A stretch of 16,129 nucleotides of DNA. It comes from a virus. Taxonomy: Duplodnaviria; Heunggongvirae; Uroviricota; Caudoviricetes. The notes beneath the pieces are model-generated. The model was not told where the DNA came from. It saw only the letters and a program-made list of their open reading frames with translations, and made no database searches. Both the position numbers and the translations under genes were made by a program. Position 1 is the stretch's first letter. Every line of letters begins with the position of its first letter. The stretch lies in IMG/VR virus record IMGVR_UViG_2585427784_000001. One strand, 5' to 3'. This document shows, piece by piece, positions 3,260 to 8,600 of the stretch.

Positions 3260-3318
3260 TTATCAGGACTGGAATTTGATATTACTGCCCGTGTGCAGCG
3301 GGCTAAGTGGAGAAACAT

Positions 3319-3525
3319 ATGCTGAACCTCGATTGTGTTCCAATCTCAACTTATTGCAAAGAAACTGGCGAAACTCCTGAAGCAATAAACAAACGTGTAC
3401 AGCGCGGTGTTTGGCGTGAAGGTGTTCAGGTTTTAAAGGTTGAAGGCGTTAAGGAGAGGTGGATTGATCTTAGTGAGGTTGCAAAATGGGCCAGACAAAA
3501 CTGCTCAAACTACCGCGCGGCGTAA
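3319..3525 (+). CDS. Excisionase-like (Xis/AlpA-type winged-helix) DNA-binding protein
   Basis: Track ORF 3307..3525 begins at a GTG. The ATG at 3319 has GGAG 6 nt upstream. Small basic protein whose 3' end overlaps the integrase start by 40 nt, as in lambdoid xis-int pairs. The sequence (ETGETPEAINKRVQRG ... KVEGVKERWIDLSEVAKWA) fits the excisionase pattern. Confidence 0.55.
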   Translation: MLNLDCVPISTYCKETGETPEAINKRVQRGVWREGVQVLKVEGVKERWIDLSEVAKWARQNCSNYRAA

Positions 3526-4658
3526 CAATCAGGAAACACCGCCAGGGCGAAACGATCAATATAACTTTCACCTACAAAGGAGTTAAATGTCGTGAGCCTC
3601 TTTCCAATCTGGAAGTAATACCAAAGAACATAAAATACGCCGAGCGCACACTCGGCGAAATTCATAATAAGATCGAAAGGGGAACATTCATTTATGCGGA
3701 ATATTTTCCCCGTTCTGCTCGTTTGAAAATTTTTGGTAATGCTGCTGCAGGCAAAACGGTAAAAATGTACCTGGACGAATACCTTGAAATCTGCGAAACG
3801 AGAAAACTTTCACCCTCTACGATTGGTGGTTATAAAAAATGCCGTAGTGCGTTAGCCTCACTCCACATTTGCCCTGCAAGTGAATTAACACCAGCAATCC
3901 TGAAAGCGTGGATTCAAAGCCAGAAAACGACCTTAAAAACAATTCGCAACCAGTTATCTTTCCTGCGGTCAGCACTTGATGAAGCCGTAACCGATGGGGT
4001 ACTTCAAATTAACCCCGTATCGTTGGTAACTGCTTCGCGCTACCAAAGTGATAAGTCAGAAGCAGAAAGCAGCTACGTGGTTGATCCGCTATCACCAGCA
4101 GAAGTTGATGCATTACTAGCAGCAGCCGGAAACAAACAATGGGAAAATCTGTTCCGGTTCGCTATACATACAGGCCTGCGTAGTTCTGAATTATGTGCCC
4201 TTCGATGGCGTGATATCGACTTTGTTGGAAAAACTGCCCATGTCCAGAGCGCAAGTGTTGTCGGTGTTATCAAAGGGACAAAGACAAAAGCAGGTACTCG
4301 GAAAGTTGAACTGACAGAAGAGGCAATGTTGGCGCTGATAAATCAGAAGCCATTTACATTCATGAAGGATGCTACTGTCTTTGAAGATCCAAAGACCAAT
4401 AAGCCTTGGGCAAGTGCTGATGCAATTAGGAAAAAAGCATGGGTGCCAACATTGCGAAAAGCAAGTATTCGTTACAGAAACCCATATCAAACCAGGCATA
4501 CATTCGCCCCCAGCCATATCAGCCGAGGAGCAAACCTGTTTTGGCTTGCAGCTCAAATGGGGCATAAAGGGCCGGAGATGCTTTTCAGGCACTATGGTTC
4601 GTATCTTAAAGAGTATGATAACTTTACATCGATAAATCATTTGCATAATCATAATTAA
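3486..4658 (+). CDS. Tyrosine site-specific recombinase (phage integrase) with N-terminal arm-binding region
   Basis: 390-aa ORF. Catalytic-domain signatures are visible: box I Arg (HTGLRSSEL), box II (RHTFAPSHISRG ... LAAQMGHKGPEMLFRHYGSYL) with the presumptive Tyr nucleophile. No frameshifts seen. Confidence 0.9.
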   Translation: MGQTKLLKLPRGVTIRKHRQGETINITFTYKGVKCREPLSNLEVIPKNIKYAERTLGEIHNKIERGTFIYAEYFPRSARLKIFGNAAAGKTVKMYLDEYLEICETRKLSPSTIGGYKKCRSALASLHICPASELTPAILKAWIQSQKTTLKTIRNQLSFLRSALDEAVTDGVLQINPVSLVTASRYQSDKSEAESSYVVDPLSPAEVDALLAAAGNKQWENLFRFAIHTGLRSSELCALRWRDIDFVGKTAHVQSASVVGVIKGTKTKAGTRKVELTEEAMLALINQKPFTFMKDATVFEDPKTNKPWASADAIRKKAWVPTLRKASIRYRNPYQTRHTFAPSHISRGANLFWLAAQMGHKGPEMLFRHYGSYLKEYDNFTSINHLHNHN

Positions 4659-4666
4659 TATTTAAT

Positions 4667-4694
4667 AATCCCCGCATTTTTAAAATCGGGGATT
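4667..4694 (+). promoter_or_regulatory. 8-bp stem hairpin (AATCCCCG / CGGGGATT, 12-nt loop) between integrase stop and the next start; its 3' arm contains the GGGGA Shine-Dalgarno
   Basis: Perfect inverted repeat read directly. Not followed by a real T-run, so it looks more like a translational or stability element than an intrinsic terminator. Confidence 0.3.
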
Positions 4695-4699
4695 TAAAG

Positions 4700-5479
4700 T
4701 TGATTACAATTACATTCGACAAACTAATCACCTACATATCTTCAGTTGGTACTTTCATTTCAGCAATTGCTGCATTATATGCAATATGGTTAACGATATT
4801 TCAAAGAAGGCTCTCTTATAAACCCAATTTAGTGATAGACACTTTAAATATCAAGATGAATGTTAACGATTTCAACGGTTTTCATGTTGATATCTTACAA
4901 GCCCCTACGCTTCCACAAACAAAATTTTCAAACATAGGATTGGGGGCGGCAATTTCACTTAGATATCATTGGGATTTTAATTATAAAAAAAACATAAATC
5001 TATACTTAGAGTTGTTTTCGAAAAAATTCAAAAAAGAAGATAAATCTTTTACAACCGACTCCCAGTATGGAATGTTCAAAATAATAAAAGAAAGAAAAGT
5101 ATATATGTACAATACTTTATCGACACCTTACGATATTGATTTTTCGTTACCATATAGTATAGATAAGAAGTCAAAAAACATTTTTGTACCAACCGCGGCA
5201 ATTGATATTCTATTGAATATAGCATATCTTTCACATAGACTTAAATTAGTCGGTTCTTCATCATTCACTGGTCCAAAATTAATTATTGAATATCAAGATA
5301 TAGAGGGTAAAACTAAAAAAGTCACTTGGCAAACAAAATTGGAACGTAGAGTGGCACGTTTCAGTGGTGATAATATGGAGGCAGATTTTGCACTACGGTT
5401 TACACCTGTACCAGAGAAATGGACTACAAAAGGTCTAGAGAAGATACGCAAAAGCGCCGCAAACGCCATGTTCAGATAA
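4700..5479 (+). CDS. Hypothetical membrane-anchored protein (259 aa), AT-rich orphan cargo gene
   Basis: ORF with TTG start and GGGGA 7 nt upstream. One predicted N-terminal TM helix (TYISSVGTFISAIAALYAIWLTIF) followed by a Lys/Asn/Ile-rich soluble part. Visibly far more AT-rich than the flanking integrase and autotransporter. No motif I recognise. Confidence 0.65.
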   Translation: MITITFDKLITYISSVGTFISAIAALYAIWLTIFQRRLSYKPNLVIDTLNIKMNVNDFNGFHVDILQAPTLPQTKFSNIGLGAAISLRYHWDFNYKKNINLYLELFSKKFKKEDKSFTTDSQYGMFKIIKERKVYMYNTLSTPYDIDFSLPYSIDKKSKNIFVPTAAIDILLNIAYLSHRLKLVGSSSFTGPKLIIEYQDIEGKTKKVTWQTKLERRVARFSGDNMEADFALRFTPVPEKWTTKGLEKIRKSAANAMFR

Positions 5480-5506
5480 ATATATAATTAAAACAACAGG
5501 TTAATA

Positions 5507-5537
5507 TTTTTCAGACACGGGTTCAACTCCCGCCAGC
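5507..5537 (+). other. attR-like core: imperfect partial duplicate of the tmRNA (ssrA) 3' end
   Basis: tttcagacacgggttcaactcccgccagc matches my recollection of the ssrA 3' end (TTTCGGACGCGGGTTCAACTCCCGCCAGC) with 2 mismatches. It then diverges into a perfect 14-nt palindrome ccaatcatgattgg (5537..5550). It lies 28 nt after the cargo-gene stop. Confidence 0.6.
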
Positions 5538-5666
5538 CAATCATGATTGGACGGTGTAAGGACAACACCAACAAAAACAGGAAGTTAGAAGTCTCAGCAA
5601 AACACCGACCAGACGGTGAGGAGACATAAAAGGATACGCAAAGGAGCCGCGGCTCCTGGTAACATG

Positions 5667-5694
5667 AAAGCCCACAGATGTGGGCTTTTTCGTT
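5667..5694 (+). terminator. Rho-independent terminator (GCCCACA...TGTGGGC + TTTTT)
   Basis: GC-rich hairpin followed by a T5 run on the plus strand. It abuts the stop codon of the convergent autotransporter gene at 5700, so it may work in both directions, though the minus-strand side lacks a U-run. Confidence 0.6.
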
Positions 5695-5699
5695 GATGG

Positions 5700-8600
5700 T
5701 CAGAACGACCAGTTCATACCAGCTACCGCGTTCCACGGGGATTCCACACCGGCACTATGGCTATACCCCACCCCAAGATGCCCGCTTAACGTACTGCTGA
5801 ATGAGGCTTTAATACCTGCCTGGTATATTCCACGTCTGCCCGACAAATAATTGACGAAATTACCGTCACTATTCACTTTCACCCGGTTATCATCGACAAA
5901 TTCTTTGCGCACAGCCGCCTTCAGCCACGGCTCAACTTCCATACCGTTCCCCAGACGCATGTTGTAACTCAGCGTTGCGCCCAGTTCACGATATATACTG
6001 CGGGTATCGACTGATTTCGATTTCATGCCATTGGATAAATGATATTCGGGGTTATCAGCGGTGAACCCCGTTAACGATGCATACGGCGTCAGGTTCCAGT
6101 TACCATCGGTAAATCGCATCCCGGTTTCAATGTGACCGCCCAGCCCGTTGCTGTGGTAACTGCCATTGGCGGCTCCACCGCTGCTCATTTTACCTGCTAC
6201 GTTACTTTTAAAACGGTTCAGCTTCACGACACCGTCCAGATAGAAACCACTTTCATGTTCCCAACTGGCATAGCCGCCCAGAGAATAACTGCCCACACTG
6301 CCATGTCCTCCGCGATCAAAACCGATATGTGAATGGGAATAGCCCATAAAAGCGCCTAGCGTGGTAATTCCTTCAGGAATATCATTACGGCTGTCGATCC
6401 CCACTGTCATTCCGGTCAGCGTCTGCTCAAACCCGGCACCCGCATCGGTGGTGACATTATTACGGGTGTTATACCTCGCCCCCCAGACATTATTGTTGTG
6501 TGGACTCGCTTTCATTATGTTCAACCGCTCGCGAATACTGTTTAGCTCAGCATCAAATACCAACGGTAATGTTGCTGCCATATTGAGTACGGCTGCCGTA
6601 GAAGGCGTAATGCGTTTCTCCGGAACGGGTGTCGGCGTTGGATCGGGAGTAGGGTCTGGTTTTGGATTTGGGTCTGGCTTTGGATCGGGTTTTGGGTCTG
6701 GCTTTGGATTTGGGATGGGGTCCGGGTTGGGTTTGACATCATTGGTCAGGTTCCAGTTGCTGTTGCCGTCACTTTTCAGGACATACTCATAGGTCCCAAG
6801 ATCAACGAAACCGCCGGTATTGCCCAGCGTAAACGAAGCATCCCCTCCCCCTGTTTTCACCAGCGTCATCGCGTCGTCAGACTGTGGGCTGACGCCGGTA
6901 TCCTGAACAAAGATTTTAAAATTACCAGTGGCGTTGTTGTTGACGACCAGTTGATCGCCCCGGGAGCCTGCAACGTTGGTATGCAGGTAGAAATTACCGC
7001 TACCGGAAAGTTCATTGGTTGTCAGCGTATTGTAGATACCGTTAGTTGTGGCAGGCGCTGCTGTTTGTGCTGACAAATAAACATCACCGTCGTTGAGTAG
7101 CAAACTGTTTACTCTATATTCGCAGTTGCTGGTACCTGCACAGGAATTATTGCTGTTAAGCCAGACACTGCCCCGGCTGGCAGCCGTCAGGTCGGCAAGC
7201 GTGGTATCGACGCCATTTCCCAGAGTCAATGTCGCGCTATCGGTAATCCGGACCGCCCCTTCGAGTTTAACTGGCGTAACATTATCCCGTGGCGTCATTA
7301 ACGACAGGCTTCCTGTCGCGCCACTGACCGATGCATCCGCCAGCGTACCTGCGTAGACGATTGCCGTACCGCCAGCGACCTGGAGATCTTCTGCCCGGGC
7401 CAGAGCCTGAAACTCATCTTTTGACCGCCCAAGGGTATATTGCCCGCCAGAGTTAACCTTTGTGGCGGAGTCCTGACCCAGGTTTTGCATTGCCCCACCC
7501 TTGCCAACCGTGGAGTCGCGAGCTTCGGTACCTGCTAATACCAATAAATTACCGCCATTTTCCAGCAACATATTGGTCGCTAAATTGCCGGAAATGGAAA
7601 AAGTACCGTACTGGTGAGTACCGCTGATTTCAATACCGTTAGCCGTGCTCGTCTGGAGAGCGGCACCGCTGTTCTGGACGATATCTGTCGCTTTGCCATT
7701 ATCGTTGACTGTCAGCGTACCGCCTTCATTGATCTTTGTTTTTATTGCCTCTCCGTTAGCTGAAACTGTTTGTATTCCGCCGTCGTTAATTGTTGTCTCA
7801 TTCGCCACACCCTCGACAATTTGTTCACCGCCGGTGAGCGTCGTGCCTGTCGCAGTGGCTTTTGTTTTGACGATCTCCCGTCCGCCCATATTGACCTGTG
7901 TTTTGTCAGAAGAGGTGTCTGACTCCACGGTTAACACGCCGCCATTTGCCAGCAGGATATTGTTCGCCGCACCCTGCTCGATGCTGAACGCGACGCCATC
8001 CGCGCGTGTTCCTGTGACCCGCGTCGCCCTGGTGGTTGCAACCAAAGCGCCCTGGCTACTCTGCTGTATCCCCGTTGCGCTGCCTTTCTCCCGCACATCG
8101 AGTGTGCCGCCGTCATTAAGCACCGAGTTTTCAGCCAGACCGCCCTCATTAACTACCTGTGAACCCCCATTAATAATGGAACCTTCCGCTGTCCCGTTTG
8201 CCATAATTTGTTGTAGGCCAGAGACGATATCGGTATTGATTGCCTTACCATAATTCTGAACGGTTTGCGTGCCACCATTGATGTGTGTTTTCTCTGTTGA
8301 CCCACCATCAACAATTTGTTCACCACTTTCGATATTTGCTTCAGTGGCTAAACCATATACCGTTTGCTTGCCACCTTTGATATTTGCTTTATCAGAAGTG
8401 GCACTGGCATATATTGTTTGGGTGCCAGCACTATTGAGTACAGTGCCAACATCTTTTCCATAAACATCCATTTTGCCGTTGGCATTAATAATCGTGTCAA
8501 CTGCGCGGGAACCAGTGACGACTGTTAATGAGCCAGCGTTTTCCAGCACTACATTTTTAGCTTCTGAATTCCTGATGTAGAAAGCATCACCATAACTGTT

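Follow-up and report, generated by a model that had tools for sequence, protein, structure and literature searches.

The DNA analysed here, referred to as the window, is a stretch of 16,129 nucleotides (nt) from a virus of the Caudoviricetes (IMG/VR record IMGVR_UViG_2585427784_000001), in which a gene at 4700..5479 lies between the stop codon of an integrase gene (int) and an attachment (att) core derived from the 3' end of ssrA, the tmRNA gene. On sequence comparison this int-att slot proves to be a genuine cargo hotspot of an ssrA-integrating lambdoid phage lineage, and the gene is proposed to encode a stand-alone, lysogen-expressed, single-gene anti-phage protein of the inner membrane, carried as slot cargo of that lineage (probability about 0.5). 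An anti-phage role of any kind is given odds slightly better than even, and a membrane mechanism of the abortive-infection (Abi) type, with a cytoplasmic sensor and oligomerisation through the transmembrane (TM) helix, is a tentative proposal. The preliminary description, made from the sequence alone, had put the gene forward as a phage-borne accessory or defence candidate; its position in an int-att cargo hotspot was confirmed, whereas the anti-phage function is still deduced from context and architecture. The features of the gene and of its immediate surroundings are the following.

4700..5479, + strand: cargo-slot gene, TTG start, 259 amino acids (aa), about 30% GC
4721-4801, + strand: predicted TM helix of the 259-aa protein, residues ~8-34
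4802-4825, + strand: conserved juxtamembrane segment QRRLSYKP
4826-5416, + strand: beta-sandwich domain with two inserted helices, from the AlphaFold2 model
5417-5473, + strand: C-terminal helix, from the AlphaFold2 model
4641..4669, + strand: promoter-like element TTGCAT-17 nt-AATAAT (consensus scan site 4640-4669)
4667..4694, + strand: stem-loop AATCCCCG...CGGGGATT, RNA fold z = -3.9
5443..5465, + strand: tandem motif GATACGCAAAAG-CGCCGCAAA in the 3' end of the gene, putative arm-type sites (P arm) of the integrase (Int)

The slot was compared across related prophages, as the preliminary description had proposed, and different cargo genes were found to alternate there. Of 5426 complete E. 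coli genomes, 396 have the integrase (≥90% DNA identity, ≥80% coverage) and 50 have the cargo gene 4700..5479. Among prophages with int at ≥90% DNA identity, at least eight different contents were found between the int stop and the ssrA core. Slot variants lose homology to one another within nt 1112-1158 of int (1173 nt long), mostly at 1133/1134, about 39 nt before the stop. The exact ssrA core followed directly after the cargo in six of the seven other slot variants that were opened; the core of locus L033 (loci compared here carry L numbers) was detected only with two mismatches allowed. The slot contents are given below by strain, with genome counts that refer to cassette sequences in genomes and not to confirmed slot positions.

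JJ1886: AAA_15/21 ATPase and methylase; PD-Lambda-5_B, E 6e-124 (methylase); 85 genomes
CEC12044: AbiLi and AbiLii; E 4e-101 and 5e-29; 15 genomes
PMV-1: HATPase_c_2-like, STAS-like and hypothetical protein; without PADLOC match; 126 genomes
G749, WAT and 2015C-3163: other cassettes without assigned function
3985: 265-aa divergent member of the PHROG 7259 family, to which the window protein belongs; hmmsearch 5e-35; 8 genomes

Identified defence systems make up about a quarter of the slots (100/396). PD-lambda-5 is an experimentally validated anti-phage system (10.1101/2022.05.12.491691), and the ATPase of the JJ1886 cassette matches generic defence ATPase models only. The commonest occupant is the unannotated PMV-1 trio (L031 4165-6035), the third member of which has 199 aa; of the three further cassettes (L029, L032 and L033), those of G749 and WAT each hold two hypothetical proteins, and that of 2015C-3163 a ParA-like protein and two more. 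These four cassettes without assigned function are candidate defence systems. The PHROG 7259 family accounts for about 15% of the slots (58/396), in the form of deeply divergent alleles. In LLS, a plaque-forming lambdoid Escherichia phage that integrates into ssrA (PMC12315714), the order is int, gp31, attP, with gp31 26% identical to the window protein, and a Klebsiella prophage carries a fourth allele in the slot. The slot alleles of the family are 26-28% identical, as against 86% for the adjacent Int (window versus LLS). The literature was searched for this slot, running from the int stop to attP within ssrA-integrating lambdoid phages; no description was found in the papers searched.

The right end of the slot is shared with the phage attachment site. 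An 18-nt repeat, GATACGCAAAAGCGCCGC, lies at 5443-5460 within the codons for K-I-R-K-S-A-A, with a second copy at 5633-5650 in the P'-like relic to the right of the core. The tandem motif NNCCGCAAAAG-NNCCGCARA keeps a constant offset from the core, -76 to -56, in all slot variants and with any cargo, and the CCGCAAAAG-type motif was found at the same offset in L001, L002, L009, L012, L013, L016, L020, L027-L033 and L039. Given this fixed position and the arm-binding domain of Int, 5443-5465 probably represents P-arm Int sites, and the tandem motifs in general are probably arm-type sites of the integrase. The C-terminal KIRKS is near-invariant in enterobacterial alleles and unconserved family-wide, presumably because it is dual-coded with the arm sites. 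On this evidence the true cargo interval would end near 5440, the gene reading on into the att arm. The P'-like flank also has a copy of the CCGCAAAAG-type tandem motif, at window positions 5633-5655.

The 259-aa open reading frame (ORF) with its TTG start is a real gene, as had been proposed: ORF call and translation agree, and the Prokaryotic Genome Annotation Pipeline (PGAP) gives the identical call. In complete E. coli genomes PGAP annotates the same TTG-start ORF as "hypothetical protein". The chance of 259 stop-free codons at the composition of the ORF is about 8e-10, and among 2000 shuffles of 4660-5540 no ORF exceeded 146 codons (272 observed). A Shine-Dalgarno sequence, GGGGA, lies 7 nt 5' of the TTG; homologues that start with ATG or GTG retain the same N-terminal TM helix as the TTG-start window protein; and this helix is the best-conserved stretch of the protein. 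The start codon is thus supported by ribosome-binding sequence, homologue starts and helix conservation. The gene was correctly described as more AT-rich than its neighbours (GC 0.30 over 4600-5400, against 0.43-0.46 in the integrase and ~0.50 in the autotransporter gene to the right). In all 50 complete E. coli genomes that carry it, its DNA is ≥99.6% identical, and the exact 259-aa protein is present on 307 contigs; among the carriers sampled are O25b:H4-ST131 and further isolates from humans, animals and wastewater. Some older or GenBank records hold a 215-aa product from an internal start, which would be without the TM helix. In one IMG/VR provirus (L010 5956-6776) the gene copy is in two ORFs, with an apparent frameshift; such split or shortened versions were noted at L010 and for cluster member P0211.

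The gene had been called an orphan, a description that did not survive the searches. The window protein matches PHROG 7259 (function unknown) with E 6.2e-86 and 289 bits (residues 7-259 versus profile positions 6-270 of 277), and the family comprises at least 704 cluster representatives, with lengths of about 240-280 aa. A word-indexed search returned 21 clusters, all from Enterobacteriaceae where an organism was named (E. coli, Enterobacter, Cedecea, Klebsiella, Citrobacter), and an exhaustive profile search of 1.84 billion representatives returned 704 proteins at E ≤1e-3, 213 of them at E ≤1e-10. Among the 150 matches listed, nearly all have 216-288 aa and align end to end. Distant named members come from Chromobacterium, Rhodopseudomonas, Paraburkholderia, Methylomonas, Limnobacter and Cytobacillus, so the family spans Proteobacteria and at least one Firmicute (Cytobacillus) and extends far outside phages. 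A search of a phage collection had phage LLS as its sole match, tblastn against plasmids gave no family match, and a profile scan of genome contigs with the family alignment confirmed no locus; the 100-sequence alignment proved too divergent for pattern scans to find anything. Every source name for family members is "hypothetical protein", and a literature search for phrog_7259 and the family WP accessions found nothing relevant. Pfam had no match for the window protein and chance-level matches only for 100 family members. NCBIfam matched neither the window protein nor four of five other members scanned, and for member P0196 gave a single chance-level match (E 0.0045, 16.6 bits against a cut-off of 330 bits). 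The best hit among PDB sequences had E 0.63. Neither homology to a housekeeping or structural protein nor a conserved core context was found for the 259-aa protein. From these searches, PHROG 7259 is the only named family for the gene.

One N-terminal TM helix followed by a soluble domain, the architecture first proposed, is seen both in the AlphaFold2 models and in the family alignment. A 20-sequence alignment gave a model with a mean predicted local distance difference test score (pLDDT) of 80; a 100-sequence alignment gave pLDDT 95 and a predicted template modelling score (pTM) of 0.86, with secondary structure as in the pLDDT-80 model. The modelled elements are an N-terminal helix (residues 6-39), two inserted helices (95-110 and 165-180) and a C-terminal helix (240-258). 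All fold searches were run with the pLDDT-80 model. Foldseek returned nothing at E ≤1e-3 from the PDB and two weak matches from BFVD, which are probably family members. The modelled structure is a confident one whose predicted fold is without a clear solved relative. The earlier statement that no motif could be placed in the soluble domain agrees with Pfam, NCBIfam, PADLOC and PDB, none of which gave a significant relative. A type IV pilin-like protein was considered and ruled out, the prepilin motif being absent.

The soluble domain (~215 aa) is basic, with a pI of ~9.8. Positive charge is greater on the flank that follows the TM helix than on the short N-terminal one in 99 of 100 members (mean 3.7 versus ~1.3 K/R); because of this bias, the positive-inside rule places the soluble domain in the cytoplasm and the short N-terminus in the periplasm. 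The mean frequency of the top residue is 0.88 over the TM helix and the juxtamembrane QRRxSYKP, versus 0.53 in the soluble domain. Residues S14, S15, G17, T18, S21, A22, A24, A25 and A28 are invariant and present small side chains on one face of the TM helix, a one-faced pattern typical of tight helix-helix packing. Further near-invariant motifs in the wide family are NIGLGxA, W91, LP151 and D200.

The region between int and the gene carries signals that are specific to the family. AATAAT is invariant in seven of seven aligned alleles (window, L009, L002, L030, L020, L016, L013), with a hexamer (TTGCAT, TTGAAA or TTGAAG) upstream at a similar distance, and may work as a promoter. It abuts the 5' arm of the stem-loop, the 3' arm of which holds the GGGGA at 4688-4692, 7 nt before the TTG. 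RNAalifold predicted 11 pairs from the seven alleles, six of them with compensatory changes; the stem sequence varies, yet pairing is kept across alleles whose proteins are down to 26% identical. The module of AATAAT and hairpin is specific to PHROG 7259-family cassettes and absent after int in other cassettes; in two of these, L027 and L029, a different, terminator-like hairpin is present. An integrase terminator was ruled out as the identity of the family hairpin, which is without a U tract and absent after int in the other cassettes.

In the proposed mechanism, transcription from the gene's own AATAAT element would start ~7 nt downstream, within the conserved hairpin, giving a transcript that lacks the 5' arm and leaves the ribosome-binding site free; a read-through transcript from int would carry the whole hairpin and have the site sequestered. 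The hairpin may in this way set translation from the gene's own transcript apart from that of read-through RNA coming from the integrase gene. The protein made in the lysogen would be of the membrane-anchored abortive-infection type, with a periplasmic N-terminus, a TM helix one face of which is lined with the invariant small residues S14, T18, S21, A25 and A28, and a cytoplasmic beta-sandwich. An infecting phage would supply a cue that the cytoplasmic domain senses, and in response the TM helices would assemble into an oligomer, by which either the membrane is compromised or genome entry or replication at the membrane is blocked. Topology, oligomerisation and promoter use are suggested by sequence features, and anti-phage activity by context and architecture.

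Family members were also found in other settings. Enterobacter hormaechei (L016, and L018 6260-8841) has a 2.2-kb mini-island made up of ssrA, a 272-aa ORF, the family gene and a second core; the integrase is absent, and in some strains other mobile elements are inserted upstream. The membrane-like 272-aa ORF is not considered a paralogue, since hhalign gave a probability of 7.6% and aligned the TM segment only. In Cedecea neteri (L015 6137-8804) the order is ssrA, AbiTii, family gene, with a SymE toxin nearby. The Limnobacter homologue (P0182, L040) forms an integron cassette of one gene, bounded by attC sites that have canonical RYYYAAC/GTTRRRY cores (GGCTAAC...GTTAGGT at 6910-6977 and GCCTAAC...GTTAGAA at 7728-7803); more attC-like repeats lie along the array, the bottom strand folds, and among the other genes of the array are DUF4238 and one for an OLD-like ATPase-TOPRIM nuclease. 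Other distant members adjoin YoeB/YefM and an FRG protein, a KAP-NTPase-like gene, HicA, or an Mrr-like nuclease and a TIR protein. No conserved partner gene was found in the contexts examined; the family gene is solitary. These neighbourhoods of defence genes are suggestive. The tmRNA locus is a documented reservoir of defence systems (PMC10121019), as integron cassettes are of defence genes (10.1101/2024.07.02.601686). At L036, a co-directional array similar to that of L040 was noted, with long intergenic repeats, the Mrr-like nuclease and the TIR protein.

By described architecture, a TM anchor with an extra-membrane domain, the window protein resembles the proven lactococcal Abi proteins AbiP and AbiC, which have one and two TM helices, respectively, plus an extra-membrane domain that could not be assigned; the Abi phenotype of AbiP requires its TM helix as well as its nucleic-acid-binding domain (PMC13064643). 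PADLOC Abi models, however, match neither the window protein nor 100 family members; AbiP binds nucleic acids, whereas the soluble domain of the window protein is predicted to be a beta-sandwich; and AbiP and AbiC belong to Gram-positive hosts, on plasmids or chromosomes, whereas the window gene lies in an int-attP slot. PdpSau, an Abi protein of 278 aa from a Staphylococcus aureus prophage, acts alone and depolarises the membrane upon infection (PMC10127798). It shares with the window protein the status of a prophage accessory gene, a TM helix at the N-terminus and, at the C-terminus, a positively charged domain in the cytoplasm (predicted for the window protein), but has a region modelled as similar to an oligonucleotide/oligosaccharide-binding (OB) fold (PMC10127798) and stands beside the lysis module, whereas the window protein is predicted to have a beta-sandwich and stands beside int. 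Homology was rejected: PdpSau of phage 80alpha aligned with the 100-sequence profile at an hhalign probability of 1.2%, over 23 TM residues only. In view of this TM-only alignment and the lack of a PADLOC match, the protein is therefore filed as Abi/superinfection exclusion (Sie)-like in its working and as PHROG 7259 by family.

Sie2009-type proteins of lactococcal P335 phages likewise lie in the lysogeny module beside the integrase and protect the lysogen (PMC7693887); compared by description, they differ in that they prevent the injection of DNA and presumably act at the outer face, whereas the window domain is predicted to be cytoplasmic. As a locus, the slot resembles the hotspots of P2-like phages and P4-like satellites, in which unrelated anti-phage systems alternate at a fixed position (PMC9122126; 10.1101/2022.05.12.491691), and E. 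coli tmRNA integration hotspot no. 9 (PMC10121019), likewise a defence hotspot at a fixed position. It differs from these in belonging to an ssrA-integrating lambdoid lineage with yfdP/Q/R-type early genes and in running from the int stop to the P arm. The fuller proposal of a new, widespread family of single-gene Abi systems, combining a novel beta-sandwich sensor, a small-residue-zipper TM helix whose oligomer breaches the membrane, mobility by slot and integron, and hairpin-gated translation, is doubtful.

The slot is part of the following set of features in the window.

3307..3525, + strand: excisionase gene (xis), 72 aa; phrog_2917 excisionase, E 1.6e-45
3486..4658, + strand: tyrosine integrase, 390 aa, left wall of the cargo slot; Arm-DNA-bind_2 and Phage_integrase domains
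5508..5537, + strand: att core derived from the ssrA 3' end, aligned with the LLS attP/tmRNA pseudogene and other loci
5538..5693, + strand: apparent relic of the phage P' arm; arm-site copy at 5633-5650, terminator hairpin at 5667-5688, then a T run
5700..10409, - strand: ypjA/ehaD autotransporter adhesin, chromosomal flank outside the element; AIDA, Pertactin and Autotransporter domains

The integrase had been described as intact and is full length, its 390 aa showing 86% identity to phage LLS Int from end to end. Upstream of xis-int lie yfdQ- and yfdR-type early genes and DUF551- and phrog_1226-type genes. The exact shared core GGGTTCAACTCCCGCCAGC occupies 5519-5537, with similarity to the ssrA 3' end from ~5508; it aligns with the annotated LLS attP/tmRNA pseudogene and with real tmRNA gene ends, and the window copy is without 6 nt (TCCACC) present in all other copies. 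The site had been taken for an ssrA-derived attR scar; the ssrA origin of the core holds, but not a simple attR with native host flank, since a P'-arm relic stands on its right. The 155 bp right of the core (5538-5693) are homologous to the LLS DNA right of attP (P' arm with terminator), and therefore the junction looks like P-O-P' rather than a simple attR; the same 5538-5693 is also homologous to DNA after the live ssrA gene in Enterobacter L016. The native ssrA trailer was ruled out as the right flank, there being no match to the ssrA trailer of strain 3985 or of Klebsiella. The P-O-P' junction looks like the relic of a tandem or earlier lysogen.

On the left, prophage homology starts only at window position 984, inside yfdP (boundary 983/984), and the element in the window is therefore, on sequence comparison, a prophage truncated or rearranged on its left side. 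Positions 1-983 hold a myovirus tail-sheath fragment (ORF 334-879, - strand; Phage_sheath_1, E 5e-24), and the sheath/yfdP junction was found in no complete E. coli genome. In strain T43 the identical gene lies inside a full prophage. Temperate phages and satellites had both been named as settings of such slots; the carrier is a lambdoid prophage, truncated in the window, and not a satellite. Past the att site the normal chromosome follows, with ypjA (the annotation of 5700..10409 in matching genomes), ypjB/ypjC-type genes, tRNA ileY and IS1. Within it, 10600-14300 is AT-rich (GC 0.28-0.37) with DUF5508 and DUF5507 (ypjB/ypjC-type) genes. At 13316-13391 (- strand) lies a tRNA, anticodon CAT, which ARAGORN calls Met and which by position is probably ileY; after it come alpha-amylase-like fragments and then an IS1 transposase (15378-15881).

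Several results weigh against an anti-phage protein of the kind proposed. No experiment ties any member of the PHROG 7259 family to phage resistance. PADLOC-DB v2.0.0, whose models include the lactococcal Abi, PD-T4/T7/lambda, PDC and HEC systems, gave no match to the window protein at E up to 1 and only one chance-level match (0.0048, to PDC-S09) among 100 family members; LLS gp31 also had no match. The hotspot also holds cassettes without assigned function, so occupancy alone is no proof of defence. The associations with defence genes come from about ten contexts and are anecdotal, without background statistics, and in the L034 and L037 contexts no defence genes were found around the family member. 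The cytoplasmic orientation of the soluble domain has the positive-inside rule as its single basis. Finally, the gene lies on the strand of the pL operon, and expression during lytic growth is therefore also possible.

Four other explanations were weighed. An unlikely one is superinfection exclusion, a constitutive block of phage genome entry at the inner membrane without host death, perhaps through binding of the conserved TM helix to a component of that membrane by which DNA is translocated. Classic Sie proteins such as Sie2009 (PMC7693887) are small membrane proteins, hydrophobic at the N-terminus and encoded next to int in lysogeny modules; conservation of the window protein is highest in its TM helix, as expected of an intramembrane interaction; and a slot on the lysogeny side fits. 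But the charge bias (99/100) puts the large domain in the cytoplasm, when contacts with tail tip or tape measure are expected on the opposite side, and the distant members outside prophages, including the integron cassette, are better accommodated by generic defence. Marginally less probable again is a lysogenic-conversion or fitness factor unrelated to phages (membrane physiology, stress, colonisation), like the lambda bor and lom morons. Int-att slots of prophages do also carry non-defence conversion genes, such as those for O-antigen modification in P22-/Sf-type phages, a defence-type domain was not detected here, and some distant homologues (L034/L037 contexts) sit amid ordinary metabolic genes. 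Against this stand the identifiable cassettes of the same slot, which are defence systems, the toxin-antitoxin or Abi neighbours in several unrelated contexts, and the allele identity of 26-28% versus 86% for Int of phage LLS, which is typical of conflict genes.

An accessory of the phage life cycle, co-expressed with int from the early-left operon and acting in lysogenisation, excision control or host takeover, is improbable. The gene directly follows xis-int in the same orientation, is present in the plaque-forming LLS (gp31) and overlaps putative P-arm sites of attP with its 3' end. It is dispensable, however, as ~85% of prophages with this integrase carry unrelated cargo instead; it is intact where the phage has been lost and occurs as an integron cassette; and the hairpin over the Shine-Dalgarno sequence argues against simple co-translation with int. 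A chance or decaying, non-functional ORF in AT-rich filler, for which the unusual TTG start, the one split IMG/VR copy and the 215-aa annotations might be cited, is effectively refuted by conservation: to the chance probability of ~8e-10 are added 704 homologous representatives of the same length, a pLDDT of 95 and ≥99.6% identity in 50 genomes.

Candidates such as the proposed lysogen-expressed anti-phage membrane protein are common in prophage hotspots; the present one is above average in its large anonymous family, its confident unmatched model, its integron mobility and its hotspot, which is undescribed in the papers searched and has many other occupants without assigned function. If the protein does protect against phages, it would represent a compact, 0.8-kb single-gene defence system with a soluble domain without match and a wide distribution. 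The slot from int to attP, present in ~7% of complete E. coli genomes, would be a productive site for discovery, about two thirds of the counted occupants, including the commonest (the trio in 126 genomes), being without assigned function. Since the carriers include ST131 and human, animal and wastewater isolates, the gene could affect phage susceptibility and the host range of phage therapy. If it has no phage phenotype, it would be one more conserved prophage moron.

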